Of a DNA stretch of 64,000 nt, positions 4,012-63,352 are shown piece by piece. Positions within the stretch are counted from its first letter, which is position 1. Each line of letters opens with the position of its first letter. This stretch comes from a bacterium (GTDB lineage: Bacteria; Patescibacteriota; Minisyncoccia; Phycocordibacterales; Zambryskibacteraceae), in NCBI GenBank assembly GCA_030649135.1, contig JAUSGI010000004.1, positions 34,089 through 98,088 of the forward strand. The letters are read 5' to 3'. The position numbers were made by a program, and so were the translations under genes. Below the pieces are notes generated by a model, which worked only from the letters and a program-made list of their open reading frames with translations, was not told the DNA's origin and searched no databases.

Positions 4012-4466
4012 CTATTATTTACACAGATGGGGCGTCGAGGGGAAACCCTGGACCGGGGGGGTGGGGGGCAATAATTTCGAACGACAATTCCGTGGTAGAA
4101 ATTGGCGGAAGGGAAGAGCATACGACAAATAACCGCATGGAACTTACGGCGGCAATCAAAGCTCTAGAATCGACACCGGATAAAGAAGTTACCGTTTACG
4201 CGGATTCGGAATATGTGACGAAGGGCATGACCGAATGGATCAAGAGATGGCAACAGAAAGGCTGGAGGACGGCAGGTAAGAAGCCGGTACTCAGCCAAGA
4301 TTTATGGCAGAAACTCCTCGAGCTTACGGAGGGAAGACGAGTGGAGTGGAAATATGTGGCAGGACATGCCGGTGTGCCTCTCAATGAGCGCGCGGACGAG
4401 ATAGCTACCACTTTTGCCGATAATCTTCTACCCAAACTTTATAATGGACCAAGAGGTAAGTACTAA
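4008..4466 (+). CDS. rnhA: ribonuclease HI
   Basis: YTDGASRGNPGPGGWG N-terminus and conserved RNase H fold residues; overlaps recJ stop by 4 nt. Confidence 0.85.
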   Translation: MTIIYTDGASRGNPGPGGWGAIISNDNSVVEIGGREEHTTNNRMELTAAIKALESTPDKEVTVYADSEYVTKGMTEWIKRWQQKGWRTAGKKPVLSQDLWQKLLELTEGRRVEWKYVAGHAGVPLNERADEIATTFADNLLPKLYNGPRGKY

Positions 4467-23868: not shown

Positions 23869-24028
23869 CCCCGCTTCACCCCGCCTTGGCGGGGCAAGCG
23901 GCGGGGCAGGATTATCCACACCCCAATAAACCTCGTATTTTATAGGTGTATAATGAATCGCGTACCCCTTTTAGAGTGGTCACAATTAGAAGCTAAGTGC
24001 ATTTGCACAGACATCGAGCTAAGAATAT

Positions 24029-38483: not shown

Positions 38484-38915
38484 TTATCCTAATCTATCTT
38501 TATATAGAGCTAGAAAGTTTGGAAATTGGGAGTGGAGAGGGTGGGGTAGGGAATCTAATTTAAACCATTGCACGTCGTCAAACTTATGAGGTTCGCCGTT
38601 CTTAACCTTGTCCTTATCCACCAAAACTTTGAAGTCCAAAGCAATCCAATGAGTTTTCTTGCCATTGTGAGTTCTATGGGCGTCCCTGTAGCCGAGGAAT
38701 TCGTATCCTAAAACATCTGTGCAATATTCTTCGAAAATCTCTTTTTTGAGTGTTTCCTCTACCGTATCTCCGAATTCCAGGCTGCCACCGCCCGGATCCC
38801 AAGCGCCATGTTCGTCACGACAGTTCACACTCCTTTTGTTAAGAAGGATATTGCCGTTACCGTCATGGCAACAGTAAACGATTGTTACTCCTGTATAGTC
38901 CTCTCCTTTTTTCAT
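38484..38915 (-). CDS. NUDIX hydrolase
   Basis: Nudix box GGSLEFGDTVEETLKKEIFEE. Confidence 0.8.
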   Translation of the reverse strand: MKKGEDYTGVTIVYCCHDGNGNILLNKRSVNCRDEHGAWDPGGGSLEFGDTVEETLKKEIFEEYCTDVLGYEFLGYRDAHRTHNGKKTHWIALDFKVLVDKDKVKNGEPHKFDDVQWFKLDSLPHPLHSQFPNFLALYKDRLG

Positions 38916-45258: not shown

Positions 45259-45268
45259 AGATAACGTG

Positions 45269-45342
45269 TCCACCCTCTTGGATTCGAACCAAGGACCCCA
45301 GAGGTATAAGCTCTGTGCTCTAACCAGCTGAGCTAAGGGTGG
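45269..45342 (-). tRNA. tRNA-Ile(UAU) (no encoded CCA; C1:G72)
   Basis: cloverleaf: acceptor CCACCCT/AGGGTGG, D-stem GCTC/GAGC, anticodon stem CAGAG/CTCTG with loop CTTATAC (anticodon TAT), T-arm CTTGG-TTCGAAT-CCAAG. Confidence 0.7.
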
Positions 45343-45370: not shown

Positions 45371-47506
45371 TTATTCAAAATGAATTTTGGTGGCGGAAGA
45401 TTCGAGGCGTTCTTTCAGTAGCGGAAATTTTGAAAGTTCTGAATCATTTGCGATAAGTTTAATTGCCTCCGCGCGTGCCGCTTCAACCATCTTGATATTT
45501 TTAATCGCTTCCATGCCGAGGTCAGAGATACCCCATTGTTTTCTCCCTGCCAGTTCGCCCGCGCCTCTTTGGACCAAATCAAATTCCGCCAATTCAAAAC
45601 CATTTTTCGCCGTTACCAAAGCTTTGAGCCTTTCTCTTGATTTCTCGCCTTGGCTTTCCGTAAACACATAACAATATGCCTGGTGATTGGAGCGGATGAC
45701 TCTGCCTCGGAGTTGATGGAGTTGCGCCAAGCCGAATCGTTCCGCGCCCTCTATCACGATAAGTGAAGCATTTTCGACATTGACGCCCACCTCTACCACT
45801 GATGTCGCTACTAAGATATCAATCTTTTTATCTTCGAAATCGCGCATCACCTTTTCTTTTTCCACCGGTCGCATTTTGCTGTGGAGAATTCCAATCTCGT
45901 ATTCCGGAAAAATTTCTTTTTTAAGTCGCTTAGCTTCTTCTTTAACCGACTTGGCCTGGACGGCTAATTCTTTGGTCGGGTCGGGTTCATCTATTCTCGG
46001 GCAAATGACGTAGAGTTGCCGGCCGGCCTCCAGCTCCAATCTAATTTTTTCATACGCACCACCTCTTCTTTCTGGAGTGACGACTTCAGTAATAATTTTC
46101 TTCCGGCCGATAGGCATCTCGTCGATAAGTGACAAGTCTAGGTCGCCGTAAAGTGTCAGTGCAAGTGTGCGGGGGATGGGAGTGGCGGTCATTGATAATA
46201 AATGCGGAGTAATCTCATGTTTATTGACGAGTTTTTGCCTTTGAGCGGTGCCGAAGCGGTGTTGCTCATCCACAATCACTAGCGCGAGGTGTTTGAATTT
46301 GACACTCTTTTGAATCAGGGCATGAGTACCGATGAGAACGGCAATCTCACCGGAGGCAACCCATTTTAATAATTGCGTTCTAGAAATATCCGTCCATCCA
46401 TCCGGGTTTAACTTAGATGGAAATTTGCGACAGCCGGAACCAGTAATGAGAGCAATGTTTACAGGCAGATGCTTAAAATATTTTATGAAAGATTCGAAGT
46501 GTTGCTGGGCAAGGATTTCGGTCGGTGCCATGTAAGCCGACTGGAGGGTGCCGAAGTCCTGACCTTTCGGCTTGGAAGTGGTTATGGCATAAACTGCCGT
46601 GGCGGCGATGGCCGTTTTGCCGGAGCCCACGTCCCCCTCGAGTAGTCGGCTCATGGGATGTCCGCGGTGAAAGTCGTCAAGAATGTGCTGGATAGACCTC
46701 TTTTGTGTCGCTGTAGCCTCGAACGGAAATCTTTTTACAAATTTTTCCAGTTCCTCTTCACTTTTTTCTATGATAAAAGCGTTGCGCTCCTTGAATTCAT
46801 GACGTACTTTCTGTCTTTCTAGCTGGATGAAGAATATTTCTTCGAACGCGAAGCGTTTGCGCGCCATTTGCGCGTGCTCCTCTTTTTTCGGTGTATGGAT
46901 ATAAATGAGAGAAGTGCGGAGGTCTGGTAGACTATATTTTTTCAAAATCTCTGCCGGTATAGGGTCTACAATCTCATCAAGAATCTTGGAAACAAAGAGA
47001 TTTTGGATTTTGTGGTAAATCCAGTTGGAAGTGAGTCCTCGCGTTTCCGGATAAATAGGATAGAGAGAATGCGTTCGGCTAGTTTGAGTAAACAAATCTG
47101 GTGCGCTTTCAACTTTTGGGTTCGAGAAATATAACTGACCATTTCTCTCCGAAACTTTTCCTTCCACTCGGACATTTGAACCTTCGGCTATCATTTTGGC
47201 CAGGTAGGCTTGATGGAACCAAATAATTTTTATTTTACCCGTATCGTCTTCTACCACTCCTTCGGCCATGGGAATTTTCTTCCGGAAAGCTTTAGAAGTT
47301 TTCAGTCCGGAGATGTTGCCAAAGATGACAGCGACACTTCCTTTTGTAAGCGTCTCAATTTTTTGCACTTGTGCCGTATCGCCGTAGCGCGCGGGGACGT
47401 GATAGAGCAAGTCTTTAATACTCGTAATCCCGAGCTTCTTTAACGCTTTCTGTTGTACCGGCAAAATGCGAAACGAGCTCAAGAGAGAATCATCCAATTT
47501 CATCAT
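45371..47506 (-). CDS. recG: ATP-dependent DNA helicase RecG
   Basis: wedge/OB N-terminal domain, helicase motifs (GDVGSGKT, DEQHRFG, SATPIPRT). Confidence 0.9.
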   Translation of the reverse strand: MMKLDDSLLSSFRILPVQQKALKKLGITSIKDLLYHVPARYGDTAQVQKIETLTKGSVAVIFGNISGLKTSKAFRKKIPMAEGVVEDDTGKIKIIWFHQAYLAKMIAEGSNVRVEGKVSERNGQLYFSNPKVESAPDLFTQTSRTHSLYPIYPETRGLTSNWIYHKIQNLFVSKILDEIVDPIPAEILKKYSLPDLRTSLIYIHTPKKEEHAQMARKRFAFEEIFFIQLERQKVRHEFKERNAFIIEKSEEELEKFVKRFPFEATATQKRSIQHILDDFHRGHPMSRLLEGDVGSGKTAIAATAVYAITTSKPKGQDFGTLQSAYMAPTEILAQQHFESFIKYFKHLPVNIALITGSGCRKFPSKLNPDGWTDISRTQLLKWVASGEIAVLIGTHALIQKSVKFKHLALVIVDEQHRFGTAQRQKLVNKHEITPHLLSMTATPIPRTLALTLYGDLDLSLIDEMPIGRKKIITEVVTPERRGGAYEKIRLELEAGRQLYVICPRIDEPDPTKELAVQAKSVKEEAKRLKKEIFPEYEIGILHSKMRPVEKEKVMRDFEDKKIDILVATSVVEVGVNVENASLIVIEGAERFGLAQLHQLRGRVIRSNHQAYCYVFTESQGEKSRERLKALVTAKNGFELAEFDLVQRGAGELAGRKQWGISDLGMEAIKNIKMVEAARAEAIKLIANDSELSKFPLLKERLESSATKIHFE

Positions 47507-48801: not shown

Positions 48802-48830
48802 CTTATTCTCCTATTCGAGCGAATTAGAGA
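48802..48830. promoter_or_regulatory. operator-like inverted repeat copy 1 (TCTCCTATTCG-AG-CGAATTAGAGA)
   Basis: one of 4 near-identical copies; lies between ArsR gene stop and DUF167 gene start. Confidence 0.5.
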
Positions 48831-49074
48831 TATATTTTGAGATGTGGTGGGGTTGCGAGGGGAGTCGGTACCACATTTGAAGGCCCCTTTGTTCTTTCTC
48901 CACAATATCCACTGCGGCCAGCACATGGAGATGTTTGGAAGTAGCCTTGAATGAGAGTTTGATATGCTCGGCGATGTCCCCGACGGTAGCTTCCTTGCTC
49001 TTTTTCAAATATTTAATAATAGTCAGGCGTCTCTGATTGGCTAAAGCTTTAAGTAGTCTTTCGAGATTTTTCAT
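48811..49074 (-). CDS. ArsR/SmtB-family transcriptional regulator
   Basis: LKALANQRRLTIIKYL...ATVGDIAEHIKLSFKATSKHLHVL wHTH signature. Confidence 0.7.
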   Translation of the reverse strand: MKNLERLLKALANQRRLTIIKYLKKSKEATVGDIAEHIKLSFKATSKHLHVLAAVDIVEKEQRGLQMWYRLPSQPHHISKYISNSLE

Positions 49075-49097
49075 ACCTATATTGTAAACTGCTTTGG

Positions 49098-49135
49098 CTT
49101 ATTCTCCTATTCGCGCGAATTAGAGAATAGATTTG
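49098..49135. promoter_or_regulatory. operator-like inverted repeat copy 2 (perfect core ATTCGCGCGAAT)
   Basis: 24 bp upstream of ArsR-family gene start, in divergent region with 49172..49447. Confidence 0.5.
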
Positions 49136-49171
49136 GATGATTTGATGATAAAATAAGGGAGGAGGTGTCAT

Positions 49172-49447
49172 ATGGATGAAGGTGAGCAGGCAACCGAGTT
49201 CTGGTTGGACAAGAATCTCAGTTGTACCGAGTTCATCAAGGCGTTTGAGTCTCACTTTCAGGGAGGTCGGGTCGAAAGCCTATCCTTGGTGCGGGTTGCC
49301 AAGCCGGGGTACATGCTTTTCCATCTGAGTGTGCCGCTCGAGAGAAAAGGGGAGCTCCTCGTGTTTCTCCATGAGTACGCCGAGACACGCGACGCCGACA
49401 GCGATTGGAAGACGGCGGGCGTCCATCCATTCAATCTATTTTCATAA
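49172..49447 (+). CDS. small hypothetical protein, paralogue of 50949..51242
   Basis: shared EF(I/V)KAF..(H/Y)F.GG motif and near-identical upstream RBS context (GAGGAGGTGT.ATATG); G+C-richer. Confidence 0.35.
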   Translation: MDEGEQATEFWLDKNLSCTEFIKAFESHFQGGRVESLSLVRVAKPGYMLFHLSVPLERKGELLVFLHEYAETRDADSDWKTAGVHPFNLFS

Positions 49448-50350: not shown

Positions 50351-50398
50351 ACCATAATGATAACATCTGGGGCTTTGTTTTATATAGGATTGGTTCGG

Positions 50399-50436
50399 CT
50401 TATTCTCCTATTCGAGCGAATTAGAGAATAGATTTG
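50399..50436. promoter_or_regulatory. operator-like inverted repeat copy 3
   Basis: ~50 bp upstream of 49502..50350 start. Confidence 0.45.
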
Positions 50437-50502
50437 TATAAATAGAAAATCGGGTTCCGCGAGGCGCGGAACCCGATTCGAATCGTCGGCCAGTCTTCTA
50501 TG

Positions 50503-50948: not shown

Positions 50949-51242
50949 GTGATAAGGTATGAGAGGAGGTGTGATATGAGAGATGATATGCGGGTGAGCG
51001 AGTTCAGATTAGATGAAGATTTCGACCGTGACGAGTTCGTAAAGGCGTTCAAGACCTACTTCGAGGGAGGTGATGCCAAAGATCTGGAAGTTGTTCCCGA
51101 CGCGATTTTGTTTTATAAAGGACGAGTGTCGCTTATTCTACTATTCGCACGAATTAGAGATGTAGAGGGGGGGGATTGGGTTGACAATTCAAATAATATA
51201 TCATACACTTTTGAAAGAGCCACATGCGTGGCTATGCTCTAA
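50949..51242 (+). CDS. small hypothetical protein (paralogue of 49172..49447), C-terminal part overwritten by operator-repeat copy 4
   Basis: N-terminal 60 aa alignable to 49172 product; repeat copy at 51132..51160 lies inside the reading frame. Confidence 0.3.
   Translation: MIRYERRCDMRDDMRVSEFRLDEDFDRDEFVKAFKTYFEGGDAKDLEVVPDAILFYKGRVSLILLFARIRDVEGGDWVDNSNNISYTFERATCVAML
51132..51160. promoter_or_regulatory. operator-like inverted repeat copy 4 (variant core ATTCGCACGAAT)
   Basis: sequence match to copies 1-3. Confidence 0.4.
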
Positions 51243-51955: not shown

Positions 51956-52009
51956 TCGCCCCGCCTGATGAATCGCCCCGCGGCTCATCAGGCGGGGCGA
52001 TTTTATTTT
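51956..52009 (+). terminator. rho-independent terminator
   Basis: long GC hairpin CGCCCCGCCTGATGA...TCATCAGGCGGGGCG + TTTTATTTT. Confidence 0.55.
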
Positions 52010-52019
52010 ATAGAGAGTA

Positions 52020-52049
52020 GGGTTTGTAAGTGCCCCAAATTTGTGGGAT
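52020..52049 (+). promoter_or_regulatory. conserved TTTGT-N12-TTTGTGGGAT element, copy 1 (upstream of dinB); extended -10 TGTATAAT at 52076..52083
   Basis: three co-oriented copies (52020, 53323, 54521), each immediately 5' of a gene. Confidence 0.45.
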
Positions 52050-52089
52050 AGGGTCGGAACAGGAATATAGTCCGCTGTATAATGCTCGG

Positions 52090-53322
52090 ATGGCGCGAGA
52101 AAAGACCATTTTACATATGGATGGAGATGCCTTCTTCGTCGCCTGTGAGGTCTCGAAGAATCCCAAGCTCAAGGGTAAAGCAGTGGTGACAGGCGAGGAG
52201 CGCGGGATAGTCTCGGCCCTCTCATACGAAGCGAAGGCGCTTGGGGTAGTTAGAGGCATGCCGATATTTTCCTTGCGCAAATCGTTTCCAAGTGTCTTAG
52301 TGCTGCCGGGAGATTATGCTTGTTACGCGCGACTCTCGGGAGAAATGTTTGACATCGTGAGGAGGTATGCCGACGAGGTCGAGGAGTACAGTATCGATGA
52401 GTGTTTCGCCGATCTCTCCGGCCTAGATAAGCCGCTTAAAATGAGTTATAGAGAAATTGCGGAGCGGATAAAGAAAGAAATCGAAAGCGAACTTAGACTC
52501 TCTGTCTCTATCGGGCTCGGGCCCTCAAAGGGGCTCGCCAAGGTGGCGTCGAAGTGGCAGAAGCCCAATGGTCTTACAGTGATAGAAGCAAAGACGGCCC
52601 CAGATTTTCTCAAAAAGACTCCGATTGAGAAAATCTGGGGCATCGGCCCGCGCACAGCAGAGTTTCTAAAGAAGAAAGGAATAGGAACTGCCGGCGAGTT
52701 CGCCTCGCGTGAACTCGCCTGGGTCAGAAAGGAACTTTCCAAACCTTACGAAGTTATTTGGAGAGAGCTCAACGGTGAATACATCATGGAGTTAGACCCC
52801 TTGCCGAAGACTGTCTATTCCTCTGTCCAGAAGACAAGGACATTTCACCCGGCGACAGGGGACAAAGTCTTTCTCCTCTCCGAACTTTCTAAGCATGTGG
52901 AAGAAGCGTGCCGCAAGGCGAGGTACTACCACCTCGTACCGAAGAAGTTTTCTTTTTTCCTCAAGAGCCAGAGCTTCAAATATTTCTCTTACAATATAAA
53001 TCTTCCCTCGCCCACTAATGCTCCGGAGACGCTGGTCGCTCTAGTCCGTAAACATTTCAAAGAAGTTTGGAGAGAGGGAATACTCTTCCGTACCACTGGA
53101 GTGGTGTTGCAAGAGCTTGCTCCGAGAGCGGCAATGCAGGGAGATTTGTTCGGAGGCTCCGATAGAGCCGGTAAGTTTGAAAAGATTCATGGTCAGATCG
53201 ACGCTCTGGAAGAGAAGTTCGGCAAGTCGGTAGTCTATCTCGCCTCCACTCACCAGTCCCTGAAGCGTAAAAAGGTCGGCACCGACTCCGACGACCTCGA
53301 CCGCAACCTGCTGTTTTTGTGA
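52090..53322 (+). CDS. dinB: DNA polymerase IV (Y-family, DinB)
   Basis: HMDGDAFFVACE N-term (catalytic D..D/F), SIDE motif (YSIDECFADL), little-finger domain; start set at MAREKT. Confidence 0.85.
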   Translation: MAREKTILHMDGDAFFVACEVSKNPKLKGKAVVTGEERGIVSALSYEAKALGVVRGMPIFSLRKSFPSVLVLPGDYACYARLSGEMFDIVRRYADEVEEYSIDECFADLSGLDKPLKMSYREIAERIKKEIESELRLSVSIGLGPSKGLAKVASKWQKPNGLTVIEAKTAPDFLKKTPIEKIWGIGPRTAEFLKKKGIGTAGEFASRELAWVRKELSKPYEVIWRELNGEYIMELDPLPKTVYSSVQKTRTFHPATGDKVFLLSELSKHVEEACRKARYYHLVPKKFSFFLKSQSFKYFSYNINLPSPTNAPETLVALVRKHFKEVWREGILFRTTGVVLQELAPRAAMQGDLFGGSDRAGKFEKIHGQIDALEEKFGKSVVYLASTHQSLKRKKVGTDSDDLDRNLLFL

Positions 53323-53352
53323 GGGTTTGTTTTAAGCCAAAATTTGTGGGAT
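53323..53352 (+). promoter_or_regulatory. conserved TTTGT-N12-TTTGTGGGAT element, copy 2 (upstream of ATPase gene)
   Basis: see copy 1. Confidence 0.45.
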
Positions 53353-53372
53353 TATTTTGTGCAAGTATATTT

Positions 53373-54518
53373 ATGGATGTAGAAATAAAGAAACAACCAA
53401 AAACCAGCATTACTGAGGATATTGATTGTGTAATTAAGCTTGAGCCACTTACAATTTTTGCTGGGAATAATAATTCAGGTAAGACTCATTTGATTAACGC
53501 TATAGGGAAAAAACTGTCTGAGAATGACATAAATGTTGTGCATATCCCAAGTGAGAGGATACTTGTAGAGAATGAATTGAAGACAGGAGCAGAAAAGGAT
53601 CCATTAAGAGCGGCTCTCGGTGATTTGATTGAGTTTGCTTTTGATGCCGACAGTTCAATCTCTAGTGATGTTTCTGATATCTCAGTAATACTTCCTGCTG
53701 AATTTATACAATATGGTATTGAGAATATAGATATTTCGGTAAAGACAAACACTCTCACTAACGATGAATATAAAAAAGCTTTAAAAGATGCTCACATAAA
53801 AAAGCTTATCGATTCCATAGTTATATCTGACAAATACTGTGGAGTTGAGGACATAAGTCCATCAAATGTGGGTCAAGGAACACAAAGAATGATTGTCGTT
53901 TCTCTAATTAGATATCTACAGCGTAAAAAATTTGAGAAGGATGGTCGAACAAGTAAACCAACATATATTATTTTTGAAGAACCAGAGATATACCTTCACC
54001 CAAAAATGAAGGCAACCTTGTATGCACTAATTCAAGCCATAGCTAATGATGGAAGATTGAATACTAAAGTTATCTTAACTACCCACGACCCATACTTTAT
54101 TGATATGGGTAGAAATGCAAAAATTTATCGGGTCTTTAGGGATCCTTTGAAGAATTTTTCTACACAATTAATGGATGTACAAAAAGACGTATTACTGTAC
54201 CCATCTTCTGCAGAAATAAACTATATTGTATTTGAGCAGGTTAGCCCTACTTATTTACTTGAATTGTATGAAAGTAAAAAACAAGAAACTGAATTAAAGC
54301 TTGGAAAGAAGTTGGGAGGTCTTAAGTATTATGAATTCGATCTAGCTTTATTTAATAAAATTGGAGAACCTCAATCTTCTACTGATGATGATGGACATCC
54401 CGTTACGTTTATAACTCGGATAAGGCATGATATGGCACACCCCTCTACCTCCATATTAGATTCTTTTGAGTCTAGAGGAAAGGAAGCTATTGAAAAATTA
54501 AGAAATTACAAAGCTTAA
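53373..54518 (+). CDS. ABC/SMC-type (AAA_21/OLD-like) ATPase
   Basis: Walker A GNNNSGKT, Walker B IIFEEPEIYLHP, H-loop ILTTHDPYF; start reset to MDVEIKK (ORF track 53319 would overlap dinB stop and the repeat element). Confidence 0.7.
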   Translation: MDVEIKKQPKTSITEDIDCVIKLEPLTIFAGNNNSGKTHLINAIGKKLSENDINVVHIPSERILVENELKTGAEKDPLRAALGDLIEFAFDADSSISSDVSDISVILPAEFIQYGIENIDISVKTNTLTNDEYKKALKDAHIKKLIDSIVISDKYCGVEDISPSNVGQGTQRMIVVSLIRYLQRKKFEKDGRTSKPTYIIFEEPEIYLHPKMKATLYALIQAIANDGRLNTKVILTTHDPYFIDMGRNAKIYRVFRDPLKNFSTQLMDVQKDVLLYPSSAEINYIVFEQVSPTYLLELYESKKQETELKLGKKLGGLKYYEFDLALFNKIGEPQSSTDDDGHPVTFITRIRHDMAHPSTSILDSFESRGKEAIEKLRNYKA

Positions 54519-54520
54519 AT

Positions 54521-54550
54521 CTGTTTGTAAAACTCTAAAATTTGTGGGAT
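54521..54550 (+). promoter_or_regulatory. conserved TTTGT-N12-TTTGTGGGAT element, copy 3 (upstream of HNH gene, followed by RBS GGAGG)
   Basis: see copy 1. Confidence 0.45.
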
Positions 54551-54565
54551 ATTTGGAGGACAAAC

Positions 54566-55753
54566 ATGGAAGATGAAATAAAGCGATATTTTGAGGGCAT
54601 AGATCTTGATATTCGGAAGCAATCTCGGGGCTATTCACGCTTCATGGATCAGAAAGTTGCTCCAGATGTCCTGTCTTTTATTGCTGATTCTGTAGTCAAT
54701 TCTATGGATGGAAAGGAGCCTGGTACCACCTTTACCATTGGTGATGTATGGGAGTTTCCTTACTTTGTAAAAAATACAGAAGCTGTATTCGGGAAACCCT
54801 CTCCAGAAAATGAAACCACGGAATCTGAGTATGATAAATTTATCGCCCAGCCCTTAAAAACCCTTGCTTTTGCTAAGATTCTGGAAGAAGAAAAAGTTGG
54901 AGGGAAAAATACATATAAGGTTCTAAGGCCCGATATTTTGGAGTATATTTCTCAAAGCGAGAAAAACGCCTTTATATTTTTAGTCCTCTATATTGAAAAG
55001 GTTTTATCTGACAGTGGATTCATAAAAAACTTCGAGGAATATAGGGAAAAGGCGCAGTCAAATAAACTAAAACCAGAAGATCTTGAAATATTAAAAAAAA
55101 GATTCCAAAAATTCATTTTGGGCAATACCAATATAAATGGCGTAATAGAAATAAATAGAGTATTTCCGAAAGTTCTAAATCCTTATGCAGCTTCACATCA
55201 AATTCCAGGAATAGAAAGGGGGCACATAACTTCTGGTAGATTTATTTACCCAGATCTCATGTATAACCGAGAAAATTTTAGGGACATTGGAAAAGACAAG
55301 ACTGTAAGTAGACAAGAAGCGTTAAGAGAAATTACTCAGCAGCCAGAAGTTGTTGAATATCGAGTTCAAAAAGCAAAAAGTATTATACGGCGCCATCATT
55401 CAAGTAGTGAGGTTAAGGATAGCTTGGCAGTAGGCGAAGCGACTCAGGTTCATCATATTTTTTCAGACCATGAATTTCCTGAAATATCTGATTATATTGA
55501 AAACCTTATTTTACTAACACCTCAGCAGCACAACACAAGAGCTCATCCAAAAAATAAAACAAATACCGTTGACGCAGAGTATCAAAGGGAATGCTTGTTA
55601 TCTAAAATTGATTCGATTGAGATGTCCGTAAGTAAGCGAGACAGCCTGTATTCTAAGGAAAGATTTATACACGTTGTGAATATTGGCTATGAACTTGATC
55701 TCTCGACAAATACTAGTTTTGAAGAATTGAGAGATATTATTCGAAAGAGATAG
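54566..55753 (+). CDS. HNH endonuclease-domain protein (C-terminal HNH, ~280-aa unknown N-terminal region)
   Basis: VHHIFSDHEFPE...ENLILLTPQQHNTRAH: H-N-H spacing; start reset to MEDEIKRYF after RBS. Confidence 0.6.
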   Translation: MEDEIKRYFEGIDLDIRKQSRGYSRFMDQKVAPDVLSFIADSVVNSMDGKEPGTTFTIGDVWEFPYFVKNTEAVFGKPSPENETTESEYDKFIAQPLKTLAFAKILEEEKVGGKNTYKVLRPDILEYISQSEKNAFIFLVLYIEKVLSDSGFIKNFEEYREKAQSNKLKPEDLEILKKRFQKFILGNTNINGVIEINRVFPKVLNPYAASHQIPGIERGHITSGRFIYPDLMYNRENFRDIGKDKTVSRQEALREITQQPEVVEYRVQKAKSIIRRHHSSSEVKDSLAVGEATQVHHIFSDHEFPEISDYIENLILLTPQQHNTRAHPKNKTNTVDAEYQRECLLSKIDSIEMSVSKRDSLYSKERFIHVVNIGYELDLSTNTSFEELRDIIRKR

Positions 55754-55757
55754 TTTT

Positions 55758-58277
55758 CTAGCGATTTATGCCAAAAAAGAATACTGAATTATTGTCGATG
55801 TTTAAAGATCTGGTACCGTGATTCCTTGCTACTCGATAAAATTGGGTGAATTCGTCTGTTCCAAAATAATCAAGGTCTTTTAGAGTTATCTTAGCTCCGG
55901 GTTCTTTTAGGGTGAGGATTGCCACAGACCCATCAACAAGCGTGTTCTCTGGTAAAAATGAAGCTCTGGGAGCATAGGTCAGGTTTGGCACCAAGACGCT
56001 ATTTTCTTTATTCCAAAACTTAGAGATTGATAACCCGTCTAACGAATCAACATAAGAGTCATAATTTGGAATGTTCAGGATCTCATTTCGTCCGATATTT
56101 CTTGATTTCAATATTCTTATTTTCCCCTTGTTTTTTGTTATCTTTTTTGTAATTTGTCGATCTCTGTAAGATGTAAATATATTGAATCGAAGTTTTTTTG
56201 CAACGAAGTCAAAGAATTCATTTCTGTACACCAACCAGTAAGGAAAATCTTTCGAACAAATATAAGATTGATCTTTATAACCAATTTCGTTTTTTACATA
56301 AGACTCAACGAGAGTCCGGGCCCCTTTATTACGAGTATTGATAATCAAACTGATTGTCTCAATCTTCACACCCCTGAACCCTTTTTCTCCATAGTCTGTG
56401 ATTTTTTCAATGGCAAATGACGAAGCAAGTTCTCTTGTTTTGTTAAATTCGGGTGCTGATAGAAAACTTTTGGGAATAATAAGACCTACGGTATCTCCTT
56501 GTTGCATTGCTTTCTCGAGAAAAAAAGAAAATAGATTATTTGTTTCGGCATTATATTTATTCTTCTTATAAGTGTTTAGGAGAACTTTATTTTCAGATAT
56601 ATCTCCGAATGGTGGATTGCCAATAACGATATCGTATCTTTTAGATTGGCCAAATAAATTAGTCTCTCCATGCAATAGAAAATCTGCGTTAATTAAATTG
56701 ATCTTGATATTTTTTGGAACATCAAGTTTTTTTAGTAAAAGTTTAAGAATCTCAATTGCATTTTTGTCGATATCAACTACATCAATAGTTACCTCCTTAA
56801 CTGTTTTATATTTTTGAACAAGAAGCGGGAGAAAATTACCAGCACCGACTGATGGTTCTAATATAGAAAGTTTTTCAAACTTTGATACATCAGGAAGATC
56901 TTTTACTATAGTGAAGCAAATGTCCTGTCTGGTGTAATACGCGGCGTGCTGAAGACGTTGGGCATTTGAAAGCTCGACGATTTTAGCTAATTCGGGGTAG
57001 CTAAAATTTTGCATATTCTCTTCGAGAAAAGTCTTAATATTTTCTTCTATATTAAGCCTTTCATCTTGGATTAATTTTTTTATTTGGATTTCATTATTTT
57101 CAACATTTCTAAGCTTTGACTTGATATTTTTAGCTATACCGTTGAATATAATTGTGGGGACTGCCTCACCTAGTGATTGTCTTATATTTATCTCTTCTTT
57201 CTTGAGAATTTTCCTCTTTTCTTCATTTGACAACTTATTTAATTCATCAAGCGGAGTAGATACCCAATTAAAAGAATCTGGTACGGACATCATTCTCATT
57301 AACTCTCTAATACTAAATACCCTGTTATCTTTTGGATGAATGGTTGCTTGGCTCGCAAATATATCGTTTCGGGTATGTATACAAGGAGCAACTTTATCCC
57401 AATAACATCGTGAGTATTTATCTCCGTTCTTGTTTTCATTGTGTACAATCTTTCCGTTTATGATTTGGTGAGGTCGCTTTTTGGCATCAGTATTATCAAA
57501 CGCAGATTGTCCCTCCTTGGTATTCTCAATCCAAGAAAGCATATGCTCAGCGTACGGACGAAAATTGTGATAGATGTCCTTTTTATCAATCTCACCCATA
57601 TTTTTAAGAGATGAAAGGTTGCCTATCGTATCACGCAAGGTACCACCATCTTTCAATACTGGCATTAGATCAAGAGGTGTAACTTCTTGAATATCTTTTC
57701 GTACTCCTATAACGAGTGTTCGGGTTCTACTCGATGGATTACCATAATCTTTGAAATTGATTACTTGATAGTGGATGTTATATTTACCTCCAAGATTTAC
57801 TTCAATTGCTTCACGAATTTGTTTTTGTTTCTTATCGATGTCAGTGCAGAGTGTAGATAGAAAAGCCCTCACATTCTCAAATATAAAAACTTTCGGTCTA
57901 ATTTCATCTACAATTTTTATTGATTCAACGACAAGAGAATTTCGTTCAAGCTCATCCCTTTTTTTGTGATTGGCTACAGACATACCCTGACATGGGGGTG
58001 TTGCCAATAAAACTTCAACTTCTTTTAAACCTTGCTTTGATTTCCAGAGATCAATTTCTGAAAATATTTTTTCTTGAGTGGCTTTTTTTGTGATGTCATC
58101 AGCAATATAACCACTTGGATATAAACACTTATTATTATGTCTTTGCACATCCAAACGTCTGTTCATAAGTTCAACAGTTGCAACACAATCAAATCCTTCT
58201 TTAGAAAAACCATAGCAACCAACGCCGGCGCTACTGAATAAACTTATATATGTTAATTTTTTATTTTGGTTTTTCAT
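55758..58277 (-). CDS. bifunctional DNA methyltransferase: N-terminal C5-cytosine MTase fused to C-terminal gamma-class N6-adenine MTase (Eco57I/TaqI-like)
   Basis: C5 motifs I (LFSSAGVGCYG), IV (PPCQGMS), VI (ENV), VIII (SRTRT), X (GEAVP); then adenine-MTase motif I (LEPSVGAGNFL) and IV (NPPFGD) + TaqI-C-like TRD. Confidence 0.8.
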   Translation of the reverse strand: MKNQNKKLTYISLFSSAGVGCYGFSKEGFDCVATVELMNRRLDVQRHNNKCLYPSGYIADDITKKATQEKIFSEIDLWKSKQGLKEVEVLLATPPCQGMSVANHKKRDELERNSLVVESIKIVDEIRPKVFIFENVRAFLSTLCTDIDKKQKQIREAIEVNLGGKYNIHYQVINFKDYGNPSSRTRTLVIGVRKDIQEVTPLDLMPVLKDGGTLRDTIGNLSSLKNMGEIDKKDIYHNFRPYAEHMLSWIENTKEGQSAFDNTDAKKRPHQIINGKIVHNENKNGDKYSRCYWDKVAPCIHTRNDIFASQATIHPKDNRVFSIRELMRMMSVPDSFNWVSTPLDELNKLSNEEKRKILKKEEINIRQSLGEAVPTIIFNGIAKNIKSKLRNVENNEIQIKKLIQDERLNIEENIKTFLEENMQNFSYPELAKIVELSNAQRLQHAAYYTRQDICFTIVKDLPDVSKFEKLSILEPSVGAGNFLPLLVQKYKTVKEVTIDVVDIDKNAIEILKLLLKKLDVPKNIKINLINADFLLHGETNLFGQSKRYDIVIGNPPFGDISENKVLLNTYKKNKYNAETNNLFSFFLEKAMQQGDTVGLIIPKSFLSAPEFNKTRELASSFAIEKITDYGEKGFRGVKIETISLIINTRNKGARTLVESYVKNEIGYKDQSYICSKDFPYWLVYRNEFFDFVAKKLRFNIFTSYRDRQITKKITKNKGKIRILKSRNIGRNEILNIPNYDSYVDSLDGLSISKFWNKENSVLVPNLTYAPRASFLPENTLVDGSVAILTLKEPGAKITLKDLDYFGTDEFTQFYRVARNHGTRSLNIDNNSVFFFGINR

Positions 58278-58281
58278 GAAT

Positions 58282-58896
58282 TTATAGTGTTCTAATTATT
58301 TTTTCTACTATACCCCTAATCTCAACTTGTTTTCGGTAAAAAGGTTTGAGGTTTTTATTTGCAGGCTGTAATCTGATTTTCCCTTTTTCCTTATATATTT
58401 TTTTAAGTGTTACTTGATTGTCGTCAATGATGGCCACGGCAGTTTGTCCATTATCAGCTACGTTTTGAGATCGAATGACAACAATATCTCCATCAAAGAT
58501 TCCATCCTCAATCATACTGTCTCCTTTAACCTGTAGCGCATAGTGTTGAAAAGGTAGTTTGATATCACTTCTCGGGACGGTAATTGTTTTTTCGTTTATT
58601 TCCATTGCTTCAATAGGCTCTCCAGCTGCAATACTACCAAGCAGTGGAATTTCTACGGTCGATTTTTCTTTCATCGTAGAAATAGTTCTTGGTTGATTTT
58701 CTTCTTTTGTGAGTAAACCCTTTTTTTGTAAGTGTTTAATGTGGAAATGGGCTGTTGAGACGGAAGCAAGTTTAAAATTTTGCTGTATTTCTACTAAAGA
58801 GGGAGCATACCCATTCTTTTTTTGTGATTGCTTCACAAAATCTAGAACCATTTTTTGTTTTTTAGTAAGCATAGATATTGACATACTATTTATCAC
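58282..58896 (-). CDS. lexA: LexA repressor (HTH + S24 autopeptidase), translationally coupled to downstream MTase
   Basis: LexA DNA-binding wHTH, Ala-Gly cleavage site (SIAAGEP), catalytic Ser (GDSM) and Lys (TLKK); 4-nt gap to MTase start. Confidence 0.85.
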   Translation of the reverse strand: MINSMSISMLTKKQKMVLDFVKQSQKKNGYAPSLVEIQQNFKLASVSTAHFHIKHLQKKGLLTKEENQPRTISTMKEKSTVEIPLLGSIAAGEPIEAMEINEKTITVPRSDIKLPFQHYALQVKGDSMIEDGIFDGDIVVIRSQNVADNGQTAVAIIDDNQVTLKKIYKEKGKIRLQPANKNLKPFYRKQVEIRGIVEKIIRTL

Positions 58897-58997
58897 GGAG
58901 GTATACTTCCATTATAGAAGGAAAATAGAAGGTCTACAAGACCTACTTATCCACACCTCCTATATAAAGATCGAATTAGTAATAGTTCTAAAAAAAT

Positions 58998-60578: not shown

Positions 60579-60668
60579 GGAGCCGTCGCATAGTGGTCTA
60601 GTGCGCCTCACTGCTAACGAGGTAGGGTCTAAAAGCCCTCGAGGGTTCAAATCCCTCCGGCTCCGCCA
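60579..60668 (+). tRNA. tRNA-Ser(GCU), class II with long variable arm, CCA encoded
   Basis: acceptor GGAGCCG/CGGCTCC, 3-bp D-stem, anticodon loop CTGCTAA, variable arm GGG..CCC, T-arm GAGGG-TTCAAAT-CCCTC, discriminator G, CCA. Confidence 0.85.
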
Positions 60669-60716: not shown

Positions 60717-61418
60717 ATGACCCTACTAGAACTCAAACGAAAATTGAGAGCCATTCAAGCTCTCGGATTTGTAAAGACACATCGTACAGGTGATACAGGC
60801 ATTGGGAAAACGCTCGAGGATCTTCTTGGTATTAAAGAAAACAATATCCCACTTCCTGATATCGGCGAAATAGCAGAACTCAAAGCATATCGAAAAAATG
60901 CAACATCAATGCTGACGCTTTTTACGCTTGAACCTCGACCTAAAGGTGGAGATCGCGATCGAGTACTTCTGGATAGTTTTGGCTATTCAAAAAGAGATAA
61001 TGGTCGCTCAAAAGAATTGCATAGCACTCTTTCGTGTAAGCGTTACAACAATCAAGGTCTGAAGCTCAAGGTTGAGAAAGATAAAGTGCGAGTCGTTGGC
61101 AAAGGCAGGAGATTAAATATTTACTGGGACATGGAGGATCTCCAAAAGAAATTCGAGGCAAAATTGCCAGCCTTAGTATATGCACTAGCAGACTGTAAAG
61201 AAGTAAGAGGTGTCGAGCATTTCCATTTTAACCAAGCTTTCTTTTTAGAGGGCTTCGATTTTGAACACTTCAAAAGTCTGGTAAAGAAAGACGCCATTGT
61301 TGTAGATTTTAGAATGTTTTATCGTCCAAGTGGCTCCGTCCGTAATCACGGCACTGGTTTTAGGGTAAAAATAAAACAACTCTATAACTGCTTCGACACA
61401 AAGGTTGAGCTGATTTAA
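60717..61418 (+). CDS. MvaI/BcnI-family type II restriction endonuclease (candidate)
   Basis: 233 aa (family is monomeric ~230-260 aa); GIKENNIPLPDIGEIAELK matches the family's ENN..L.D.GE.ELK PD-ExK region as I recall it; convergent/overlapping with an SPPY MTase. Confidence 0.5.
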   Translation: MTLLELKRKLRAIQALGFVKTHRTGDTGIGKTLEDLLGIKENNIPLPDIGEIAELKAYRKNATSMLTLFTLEPRPKGGDRDRVLLDSFGYSKRDNGRSKELHSTLSCKRYNNQGLKLKVEKDKVRVVGKGRRLNIYWDMEDLQKKFEAKLPALVYALADCKEVRGVEHFHFNQAFFLEGFDFEHFKSLVKKDAIVVDFRMFYRPSGSVRNHGTGFRVKIKQLYNCFDTKVELI

Positions 61419-63280
61419 TTTTTTCTCAAAACAACAATACTTTCTTTGTTCATCGTTTCCTCTAATGCACCCACGATATTTGTCGGAGAGTTTTTGATCG
61501 GCATTCTTTTGCCGGGAATATTTCGAACTATTATATCTTCGCAAGTAAATCCTATTTTTTCTGCTAATTCAGCAATAATAAAATCGGTGGGAATTCGCAC
61601 TTGTTTAACTAATCTATTTCCAACAACGAGACAGAAGTACTTTTTTGGTTTGAGTACCCTATGTGCTTGTTTCAAGCATTCATTTAAGCCTATATTAAAA
61701 CTCAATACATCTCTTGCTCTTGCCTCATCTTGCTTGGCGATTTTTTCTAATGATTCTTTGAGATAATCGGATGAAAGTATATGAGTTAGATTCTTGCTGG
61801 CTCTACCCCCAAGAAGATTATTGTCTACAGCAGAAGCATCGTTTGGATCATCAAAAACATCAATCCACTGCGCCGAAAGGCGAGAAAACTGTCCATAAGC
61901 AACTGTAGTGCGACTATCGCCATATGGAGGTGAGGTAATGATGCAATCAATAGAATTTGCTTTTATACCACTATCTTTCGACGAATCGCCGTAGATGATT
62001 TTTGTCCACGTATCCTTTTTTGCATCTTTATAAAAGGCAGTCATTCCGGCAATATTTTTCTCTGCATTTTTTCGAAATATGCCTAGAACATCAGGATCAT
62101 GCTTCTCTAGTTTTTCTCCCTTAACACGCACTAACTTGAATTCACCGGTCTTTGTGTTTGAGGAATACCGAACTGTCTCACTAAAAGCAACCATCAAGAA
62201 ATTTTGAATGGTCTCGTCTTTTATTTCTCTTATAGCTTTCTTTAGTTTTGCAAGTTTAACTATTACCTTATCCTTGAACCAAAAATCAATATTCTTAAAA
62301 TCTGGTCTTTTTATTTCGTTATCCTTTATTTTTTCTACTCTGCTGAGCAGGGCAATGTATTCCTTCGTTAGTTTTTGTGGATTGATTGGAGTTGTTTTTG
62401 CTTTTGCAAGAAAAATGGCTAAAGGATTGAGATCAATGCCGTAGGCATTTCTTCCTATTAACCTACTTTCAACTAAAGCTGAACCAGAGCCACAAAAAAT
62501 ATCGCAAATGGTATCACCCTCCTTGCTATAAGTCTCTAACAATCTTCGTCCGACTTGTGGGATAAACATTGCCGGATAAGTATGTATTCCGTGCGTATGT
62601 GATTTTGTTTTTTCTCCCCTGTAATCCCATGAATAATCTATTTTACGCACATACTTTTCATCTCTCGACTGTCCTTGATCTAGTTGTGATTCAAGATTGC
62701 GAATAATCTTAACGACAACACCTCTCACTTCTACTTCATCACGATAAATTGGGAATAGAGTTGGGTTTGCCGGTTGTAATCTAAACTTTCCATTCTCACG
62801 ATATAATTTTTTGAGCGTTGCTTGGTTGTCGTCTATCACAGCTACGACGGTCTGACCATTTTCTGCTACCTCTTGTTTGCGTATAACAACAATATCACCG
62901 TCAAAAATACCTTCATCGATCATACTGCTACCTTGAACACGCAGGGCATAATGTTTACCTTGCTTTCCAATTTCATCTTTTGCTATTGTAATAGTCTCAT
63001 CGGAAATTTCCATGGCCTCAATGGGCTGTCCAGCAGCGATTGCTCCAAGAATAGGAATCTCGATCATCTGCTTTGCTTCCACTGTGGAAACAGCACGAGG
63101 TTGGTTGTGTTCTTTATTCAAAAAGCCAGCATCTTGGAGTTTGCTGATGTAATAGTGGGATGTCGAAACAGAGGCAAGCTTAAATTTCTTCTTGATCTCC
63201 TCAAGAGAGGGGGCGTAGCTGTGCTTTGCCATATAAGCTTTTATGAAATCTAGGACTTGTGTTTGCTTTTTTGTGAGCAT
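61415..63280 (-). CDS. LexA-DNA methyltransferase fusion: full LexA (aa 1-~200) fused in frame to SPPY-type (N4-C/N6-A) MTase (aa ~215-621)
   Basis: LexA part paralogous to 58282..58896 incl. AG cleavage site, Ser (GSSM) and Lys (TLKK); MTase motif X/I (HTYPAMFIPQ...DIFCGSGS) and motif IV (ITSPPYGD); single uninterrupted ORF. Confidence 0.75.
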   Translation of the reverse strand: MLTKKQTQVLDFIKAYMAKHSYAPSLEEIKKKFKLASVSTSHYYISKLQDAGFLNKEHNQPRAVSTVEAKQMIEIPILGAIAAGQPIEAMEISDETITIAKDEIGKQGKHYALRVQGSSMIDEGIFDGDIVVIRKQEVAENGQTVVAVIDDNQATLKKLYRENGKFRLQPANPTLFPIYRDEVEVRGVVVKIIRNLESQLDQGQSRDEKYVRKIDYSWDYRGEKTKSHTHGIHTYPAMFIPQVGRRLLETYSKEGDTICDIFCGSGSALVESRLIGRNAYGIDLNPLAIFLAKAKTTPINPQKLTKEYIALLSRVEKIKDNEIKRPDFKNIDFWFKDKVIVKLAKLKKAIREIKDETIQNFLMVAFSETVRYSSNTKTGEFKLVRVKGEKLEKHDPDVLGIFRKNAEKNIAGMTAFYKDAKKDTWTKIIYGDSSKDSGIKANSIDCIITSPPYGDSRTTVAYGQFSRLSAQWIDVFDDPNDASAVDNNLLGGRASKNLTHILSSDYLKESLEKIAKQDEARARDVLSFNIGLNECLKQAHRVLKPKKYFCLVVGNRLVKQVRIPTDFIIAELAEKIGFTCEDIIVRNIPGKRMPIKNSPTNIVGALEETMNKESIVVLRKN

Positions 63281-63352
63281 AATAGTATTATAGAAAATAA
63301 ATAGAAAGTATACAAATCAACTTATCCACACCCTATATTAAAGATTAAAAAA

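Follow-up and report, generated by a model that had tools for sequence, protein, structure and literature searches.

A recurrent 33-bp element with extended −10 promoter geometry precedes repair and defense genes in Patescibacteria

The 64-kb window analyzed here (the whole stretch of contig JAUSGI010000004.1, 64,000 nucleotides, from a patescibacterium) contains a sequence element of ∼33 base pairs (bp) that occurs three times, each time directly 5′ of one of three consecutive genes: dinB, an ATPase gene and a gene for a protein of 395 amino acids (aa). The window is chromosomal, with genes for PGK, RecJ, ComEC and FtsH, a ribosomal-protein region and recG (45371–47506). A search of the window for the pattern GTTTGT-N12-TTTGTGGGAT, with up to two mismatches allowed, returned exactly three matches, at 52022–52049, 53325–53352 and 54523–54550, all on the plus strand, compared with a chance expectation of 0.04 matches from shuffled window sequence; none of 100 shuffles gave three. 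The starts of the two TTTGT motifs are separated by 17 bp in each copy (3/3). Pattern search and direct reading of the sequence agree on three co-oriented copies with this spacing, one ahead of each of the three genes, as the original prediction had it, and the distances to the start codons are 40, 20 and 15 nucleotides (nt).

All three copies lie on the plus strand and were delimited from the sequence itself, the pattern search, an alignment and a position weight matrix (PWM). Upstream of them, a terminator-like hairpin (CGCCCCGCCTGATGA ... TCATCAGGCGGGGCG followed by a T-run; 51957–52009, plus strand, read directly) marks the end of an HD/PDEase-like gene; it is missing from our terminator scan, its loop exceeding the length that the scan permits. 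Copy 1 (GGGTTTGTAAGTGCCCCAAATTTGTGGGATAGG, 52020–52052) begins 10 nt past this hairpin and is composed of TTGTAA at 52024–52029, TGTG at 52042–52045 and GATAGG at 52047–52052, with its GGGAT ending at 52049, 40 nt ahead of the dinB start codon at 52090. Between copy 1 and dinB lies a further extended −10 motif, TGTATAAT (52076–52083, plus strand, read directly), which was also claimed originally and which is placed 6 nt ahead of the ATG in a leaderless layout. The dinB gene (52090–53322, plus strand; DNA polymerase IV, with the Pfam families IMS, IMS_HHH and IMS_C) ends in the stop codon TGA at 53320–53322, and copy 2 (GGGTTTGTTTTAAGCCAAAATTTGTGGGATTAT, 53323–53355) begins directly behind it, with TTGTTT at 53327–53332, TGTG at 53345–53348 and GATTAT at 53350–53355. 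Its GGGAT ends at 53352, leaving 20 nt to the ATG of the ATPase gene at 53373, and a second TGTG-n-hexamer motif, TGTGCAAGTAT (53358–53368, plus strand), is found 4 nt ahead of that ATG. The ATPase gene (53373–54518, plus strand) belongs to the AbiEii/OLD-like group by its Pfam matches (AAA_15/AAA_21), and copy 3 (CTGTTTGTAAAACTCTAAAATTTGTGGGATATT, 54521–54553) starts a few bases past its stop codon, with TTGTAA at 54525–54530, TGTG at 54543–54546, GATATT at 54548–54553 and then GGAGG at 54555–54559. From the end of its GGGAT at 54550 there are 15 nt to the ATG of the 395-aa gene (54566–55753, plus strand). This gene had been described as an HNH gene; its place behind copy 3 is right, and the HNH assignment itself is weak (Pfam, E = 0.021).

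We compared the window copies with related loci from metagenome contigs and genome assemblies, numbered here with the prefix L, of which L002 is a Saccharibacteria metagenome-assembled genome. The closest relatives of the window dinB and lexA genes are labeled Saccharibacteria, Paceibacterota or Patescibacteria. A scan of one genome per species for the exact pattern gave four matches, about the number expected by chance, and L002 was the only true relative among them. It is syntenic with the window, with the order element, tag, dinB, element, ATPase gene, element, mazG, the ATPase (520 aa) being unrelated to that of the window. Among metagenome contigs the scan gave 86 loci, ∼15 of which are true relatives; ∼65 of the 86 were set aside as chance or coding matches, such as one sequence that recurs in human-gut contigs, and phage and plasmid collections and viral contigs yielded either nothing or chance partial matches. 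Beyond the window, the element is found at ∼20 sites in metagenome contigs of related Patescibacteria. Our literature search found nothing that describes the element and nothing relevant on this motif or on Saccharibacteria promoters.

The 18 distinct copies from the metagenome contigs and the Saccharibacteria genome fall into two discrete subtypes. Type A has the consensus GTTTGTAAAT-nCn-TAAAATTTGTGGGATAGTTG and type B the consensus GGGTTTGTTTTAAGCC(A/C)AAATTTGTGGGAT(T/A)(A/T)T; in the window, copy 3 is of type A, copy 1 is type A-like and copy 2 is of type B. PWM scores are bimodal, with the element at 38–49 bits, the background below 8 bits and only three copies in between. Because the sequences form two discrete subtypes, the copies are related by descent rather than by convergence. 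All copies are intergenic, about 22 of the 23 distinct copies share the orientation of the open reading frame that follows, and the distance from GGGAT to the start codon is mostly 6–22 nt. Among core SOS genes the comparison covered dinB and lexA loci, and at dinB the element is found 5′ of dinB itself, of a tag–dinB pair, or of a small gene followed by dinB. The genes behind the copies, as classified by Pfam, include methyladenine glycosylase (tag, twice), dinB, MazG-like genes (four times), endonuclease VII, a TaqI endonuclease, an EcoRI-type methylase, a T5orf172 gene followed by a D12 methylase and an AlwI endonuclease, PIN_8, Bro-N, a queuosine-salvage protein and AbiEii/OLD-like ATPases, along with several genes without a family match. 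One further gene near dinB is of note in its own right: directly behind a MazG-like gene, at 4027–6348 of L093/L094, lies the gene for a 773-aa protein in which a Schlafen-group-3-like helicase domain is joined to an S24 (LexA-type) peptidase domain.

The architecture of the copies fits that of a promoter. TTGTAA or TTGTTT, a 17-bp spacing and GATnnT are present in all 18 copies found through the pattern, and TGTG sits one base 5′ of the hexamer (TGTG-G-GATAGT), an arrangement typical of extended −10 ('TRTGn') promoters of the sigma-70 type. The hexamer has an A at position 2 and a T at position 6, and this final T, which lies three nt past GGGAT and thus outside the search pattern, is present in 17 of the 18 copies, the sole exception being window copy 1 (GATAGG). 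Extended −10 promoters, with their 'TRTGn' −16 region, are read by sigma-A/sigma-70 in Bacillus subtilis and other Gram-positive bacteria. The element resembles them in its TTG-type −35, its 17-bp spacer, its TGTG ahead of a hexamer with A2 and T6 and its co-oriented placement just upstream of a gene, and the relatives also have plain promoters of the TTGTGGTATAAT type; it differs from them in that its hexamer starts with G and in that the whole 30 bp, the spacer included, hardly varies between genomes or between unrelated genes. From this architecture we consider it probable, with moderate confidence, that the element is an extended −10 promoter, portable and specific to this lineage, at the head of every repair or defense cassette. 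It would supply each downstream gene with its own transcription start: the housekeeping RNA polymerase holoenzyme would read TTGTAA (or TTGTTT) as the −35 hexamer and GAT(A/T)(G/T/A)T as the −10 hexamer, with a 17-bp spacer in between that ends, on its 3′ side, in the TGTG '−16' motif. Transcription would then be predicted to begin ∼10 nt past GGGAT (∼7 nt past the hexamer), which would produce leaderless or short-leader mRNAs.

Variants that were found through their dinB or lexA homologues, independently of the pattern, bear on which parts of the element matter. In L111/L112 the variant ACTGGTAAATTCTAAAAATTTGTGGTATCAT, followed by 6 nt and an ATG, has lost the first TTTGT and has its hexamer improved to TATCAT (TGTG-G-TATCAT); in L099 the variant GTTTGTAATACCTTAGGTTTTGTGGAATGAT (TGTG-G-AATGAT) is followed by AGGAGG and a gene; and in L114 the spacer is 1 nt shorter, at 16 bp. 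What these variants retain is TGTG and the hexamer, that is, the promoter geometry and not the 'direct repeat'. Among the pattern-found copies, the one ahead of tag in L002 reads TGTG-T-GATTAT. Because of this geometry, and because variants lose the first TTTGT, the two TTTGT motifs would largely be the −35 TTG and the −16 TGTG. Conservation at four mazG promoters has the edges of the element: the upstream flanks cannot be aligned, the sequence is invariant from GTTTGT onward, and similarity decays after GGGATAnT. Of the possibilities raised in the original prediction, a shared promoter module is therefore the best supported, by the geometry, the final T that was not searched for, the co-orientation and the edges of conservation at mazG.

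The leaderless layout is not confined to the element. Promoters of the TTGTGGTATAAT type (TTGTGG-TATAAT) and of the form TGnTAnnnT are frequent both in the window and among its relatives, and an TGTATAAT-type extended −10 is also found 5′ of dinB in L002, L111/L112 and L114. An arrangement of −10 hexamer, ∼6 nt and ATG recurs in the window at 38915, 39885, 39940, 49074, 50350, 52090 and 63280, the genes with 6 nt including dinB, the gene for a LexA fusion protein, FtsH and an ArsR-like gene, and it is seen in the relatives as well. This recurrence suggests that leaderless mRNAs are common in the organism of the window.

Several observations weigh against a promoter. In strict terms the match to the consensus is only 8/12, below the 9/12 required by our TTGACA/TATAAT test, and the sigma-70 scan listed no copy of the element. 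The −10 hexamer begins with G and not with T. In copy 3 and several relatives the predicted start would exclude a good Shine–Dalgarno sequence from the transcript, and the distances to the start codon, taken over all copies, span 3 to 100 nt. Copies 1 and 2 each have a start-proximal −10 motif of their own behind them, and copy 1, which lacks the final hexamer T, lies 27 bp upstream of dinB's own TGTATAAT. Moreover, 18 conserved positions were fixed by the search pattern, making the conservation there partly circular, and neither the near-invariant spacer nor the existence of two discrete subtypes is explained by contacts with polymerase alone. Because the spacer (AAAT...TAAAATT in type A) is conserved beyond what polymerase needs, it is plausible that a further factor also contacts it. 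Two other promoter assignments were tried and rejected. Promoters of the Bacteroidetes type and the sigma-B/F type (GTTT...GGGTAT), by their known consensus sequences, have the wrong spacing, and there are variants of the element without GGG (GGTAT, GGAAT). A −10 hexamer at TAAAAT, with the start within GGGAT, lacks the critical A in four copies (CCAAAT, TCAAAT) and has no −35 hexamer.

The conserved spacer is also among the points that speak for the strongest alternative, in which the element would chiefly be the operator of a dedicated non-LexA regulator that binds TTTGT half-sites 17 bp apart and co-regulates a damage and defense regulon, possibly on top of a promoter. Both TTTGT motifs and their exact spacing are kept in at least 20 copies, the downstream genes form a coherent set by function (tag, dinB, mazG, nucleases, restriction–modification genes and ATPases), and dinB of distant Patescibacteria has GAAC-N4-GTTC over its −10 where the element-carrying lineage has the element instead. 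However, the independently found variants lose the first TTTGT (L111/L112) or shift it by 1 nt (L114) while TGTG and the hexamer stay, the PWM scores show no continuum of weaker sites, and the spacers differ between types A and B. A period of 17 bp is a non-integer number of helical turns, which does not favor paired half-sites. Nor does any regulator gene recur beside the element, except lexA of the restriction–modification modules, which has a different probable operator. For these reasons we regard a primary operator, a possibility also raised in the original prediction, as rather unlikely. The closest analogy in concept is with the RecA-NDp/PafBC-dependent damage promoters of Actinobacteria, in which a LexA-independent motif embedded in the promoter is common to DNA-repair genes; the element has no sequence similarity to them and no WYL/PafBC-type gene was seen, leaving this as an analogy only.

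Two candidates for a recurrent regulator, the ArsR-type gene at 48811–49074 and a family of ∼91-aa proteins (49172, 50976 and L111/L112), were rejected, as neither can be tied to the element. The surroundings of both are described here as separate observations. A palindrome of ∼45 bp, CTATTCTCTAATTCGCGCGAATAGGAGAATAAGCC, occurs twice in the window (49075–49171 and 50351–50499), in divergent promoter regions by the ArsR-type gene. The ∼91-aa family, which has no Pfam match, has two paralogues in the window (49172–49447 and 50976–51242) and members in L111 (4751–5026) and L112 (1532–1807), and it is syntenic with dinB and the element.

Apart from any role in transcription, the copies mark the 5′ edge of gene cassettes, behind which non-homologous genes of DNA repair, nucleotide hygiene and defense make up a variable island. 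Right behind dinB the GC content falls from ∼0.49 to 0.33–0.40, with ∼0.40 reached at the ATPase gene, and the slot behind dinB is filled by different genes in the window, in L002 and in L112. At the 395-aa gene, the element has supplanted the native promoter, which in nine other loci is the tRNA-adjacent one, all the way to the start codon. Arrays of alternating elements and genes are present in the window, L002, L018 and L078. A recG gene 78–82% identical to that of the window adjoins element-bearing genes in L042, L064, L081 and L099, and the element therefore belongs to a variable island in the recG–dinB neighborhood. (In the window, an unrelated feature of this neighborhood is a tRNA-Ile gene with the anticodon TAT, uncommon in bacteria, at 45268–45342 on the minus strand, between recG and a Mur-ligase gene.)

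Two loci are especially informative as to how cassettes could move. In L015, a Bro-N gene of 930 bp, whose low GC content stands out from the high-GC DNA around it, is bracketed by a 42-nt direct repeat (95% identical) that consists of the element and 14 nt of its upstream flank. In L114, a 124-nt repeat (99% identical) brackets the dinB gene that is closest to the window dinB (88% identical), and no gene follows the downstream copy. In both loci, GGGAT is the exact end point of the repeat. The palindrome CTATTCTCTAATTCGCGCGAATAGGAGAATAAGCC described above is, in L114 (72–95 and 1493–1516), part of this 124-nt repeat. That the element is a cassette boundary, as proposed alongside the promoter module, is likewise supported by the unrelated low-GC genes behind the copies and by the bracketing of a single gene by repeats ending at GGGAT in both loci. 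The shared 30–40 bp would also act as homology for the gain and replacement of cassettes, and the element probably serves as a recombination anchor in this sense. Neither the loci, in the sequence examined, nor the window between 43 and 64 kb showed a recombinase family in their called or annotated genes, and this absence, together with the unequal repeat lengths, would make homologous recombination likelier than a site-specific system.

This pattern could also be read the other way round, with the element being primarily an att-like insertion site for cassettes, comparable to integron attC/attI, and its likeness to a promoter being secondary. The element–gene arrays, the foreign composition of the cargo, the single genes bracketed by direct repeats with a common GGGAT end and the terminal gene-less copy in L114 are all what such a site would leave. 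In contrast, no integrase or transposase gene lies within the sequence examined at any locus, the difference between 42 and 124 nt in the bracketing repeats points to homologous recombination, and the element has neither an inverted repeat on reading of the copies nor a stable fold (folding z-scores near 0). Since the fixed orientation and the closeness to start codons fit a promoter instead, we find a primary insertion site improbable. The comparison with known cassette systems is similarly mixed. As in integron arrays, single-gene cassettes of foreign composition are separated by a repeated element; unlike attC, the element lies on the 5′ (promoter) side of its gene and has no imperfect palindrome, no GTTRRRY core and no integrase nearby. 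The PeSL cassettes of T4-type phages, reportedly described by Arbiol et al. in 2010, are said to consist of an early promoter and a stem–loop that flank small open reading frames. The element is like PeSL in being a repeated promoter-like sequence that flanks individual accessory genes, with direct repeats that bracket single genes (as in L015 and L114) and would allow shuffling, and unlike it in lying on a bacterial chromosome and having no stem–loop.

The gene behind copy 3 is part of a LexA-linked restriction–modification module, and two such systems are found in the window. The first is a three-gene module (54566–58872) in which an operon on the minus strand (55758–58872), comprising lexA1 (58282–58872) and a gene for an 839-aa C5+N6 methyltransferase (55758–58277), is convergent with the 395-aa gene. 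The same module, with lexA (196 aa), a C5+N6 methylase (∼835 aa) and a convergent endonuclease-like protein (∼395 aa), is present in L096–L109 and is widespread in Patescibacteria in differing chromosomal contexts, from which the 395-aa protein is the predicted restriction-enzyme partner of the module. Elsewhere its orthologues (64–74% identical) have no element and a different promoter behind a tRNA; the endonuclease genes usually follow a tRNA 3′ end, with GATGTCCAAGTT(A/C)GAACC...AAATAAGGGTATTAT. The second system in the window has this same layout, with tRNA-Ser (60579–60668) and then an MvaI/BcnI gene (60717–61418). A further lexA-type gene in the window (61415–63280, minus strand, 621 aa) encodes full-length LexA (DNA-binding domain and S24 peptidase) fused to an N4/N6 DNA methyltransferase, and fusions of this kind also occur in L009 (6689–8116, 475 aa), L042 (6940–8397, 485 aa) and L048 (6715–9378, 887 aa), each fusion gene being convergent with a nuclease-like gene. 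RecA-triggered self-cleavage would split the DNA-binding domain of the fusion from its methylase. Our literature search found nothing describing LexA–methylase fusions. In four loci (the window, L009, L042 and L048), a putatively element-driven nuclease-like gene is convergent with a lexA–methylase gene.

Given these neighbors, the element might be the LexA (SOS) box of the lineage, bound by lexA1 and/or the nearby LexA–methyltransferase fusion. It precedes dinB, a core SOS gene, and the window, L009, L042 and L048 each have lexA within 1.3–3.7 kb of a copy. It had been argued originally that the element is a direct repeat and not the palindrome of a LexA box. The repeat is there; as grounds for excluding a LexA box the argument fails, since direct-repeat LexA motifs have been published, namely GTTC-N7-GTTC in Alphaproteobacteria and TTACACATATTTTWTACATA in Balneolaeota (PMC8565304, PMC7739468), and one is reported for Patescibacteria (mentioned in PMC7739468). 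The element is like LexA boxes in its direct-repeat look, its position upstream of dinB and its occupying the place that GAAC-N4-GTTC has in other Patescibacteria.

What decides against a LexA box is that the element is absent from every lexA promoter examined, namely those of the window lexA1 and LexA fusion and of L009, L042, L048, L096, L099 and L103–L109. These promoters have instead, over the −10, TTCTAT-N5-TTCTAT(A)ATAGAA or AACCGAA/TTCGG repeats with a period of 11 bp, compared with 17 bp in the element. At lexA1 the promoter (58914–58955, minus strand) has TTCTAT-N5-TTCTAT(AAT) over its −10, with the repeat at 58914–58930; at the fusion gene (promoter 63290–63330, minus strand) the repeat lies at 63290–63306. 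Neither promoter is part of the element, and exact TTCTAT-N5-TTCTAT occurs in the window only at these two. The lexA promoters of the restriction–modification modules are conserved in this respect, with TTCTAT-N5-TTCTATAATAGAA in the relatives L096, L099 and L103, again with an 11-bp period, and the fusion genes of L009, L042 and L048 have the AACCGAA/TTCGG repeats. Because these repeats are found at lexA promoters that lack the element, the likely operator of the LexA proteins is the TTCTAT- or TTCG-type repeat rather than the element, and TTCTAT-N5-TTCTAT may be the Patescibacteria motif mentioned in PMC7739468. In addition, the lexA–methylase–endonuclease module lacks the element in nine other loci, and the endonuclease promoter of L099 has ATAGAAT-AG-ATTCTAT. 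We therefore judge a LexA box to be very unlikely.

The dinB gene itself appears to have lost its LexA box. In distant Patescibacteria (L091 at 3760, L093 at 9968 and L113 at ∼9975; 72–73% identical), dinB has AGTGAAC-N4-GTTCACT over its −10, and GAAC-N4-GTTC was not found in the window or in the element-bearing loci searched. Since the distant dinB genes have this motif and the element-bearing ones have none, the element stands at dinB where the others have their LexA box, and from the loci compared the Gram-positive-type LexA box at dinB is apparently lost in the element-carrying lineage.

A GTGG(G)ATA core shared with the element had also been noted at both lexA promoters. Its presence is real, as TTATCCACA is found as an exact match at 58947–58955 and 63322–63330 on the plus strand, with a third window copy at 23912–23920; the link to the element does not hold, as the motif is conserved in many loci that lack the element and these promoters have TTCTAT repeats of their own. 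TTATCCACA and TGTGGGAT differ by one extra G, and TTATCCACA is exactly the classical DnaA-box 9-mer (three copies in the window, with 0.35 expected). As a candidate DnaA box it lies ∼55 nt upstream of the lexA −10, in either orientation, in the window, L009, L042, L048, L096, L099 and L103.

That the element acts as RNA, through a 5′ untranslated region structure, a processing site or a small RNA, is hardly credible: it would lie inside a read-through transcript of dinB, the ATPase gene and the 395-aa gene, between which the terminator scan found no terminator, but five copies, folded together with their flanks, were no more stable than shuffled sequence (z −1.3 to +1.3) and had no structure in common, and there is no Rfam match.

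Taken beyond the extended −10 promoter that we favor, these observations could tentatively describe a so far undescribed cassette system of Patescibacteria. In such a system, each repair or defense gene would carry its own 30-bp promoter, which would double as the operator of a LexA-independent regulator of stress or phage response and as homology arms by which naturally transformed DNA would swap cassettes near recG and dinB; the element would have displaced both the LexA box of dinB and the native promoter of the LexA-linked restriction enzyme.

To our knowledge, almost nothing is known of the transcription signals and regulation of Patescibacteria (the candidate phyla radiation, CPR), most of which are uncultured. 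A 33-bp element of this kind would offer a ready-made promoter for Patescibacteria genetics, would serve as a marker in metagenomes for their variable defense islands, and would be a bait for the regulator that took over dinB from LexA here. Should the repeats indeed mediate exchange, they would represent a simple, integrase-free way to assemble defense islands in genomes of ∼1 Mb. The main value of the element would thus be as an entry point into transcription and defense-island dynamics in Patescibacteria.

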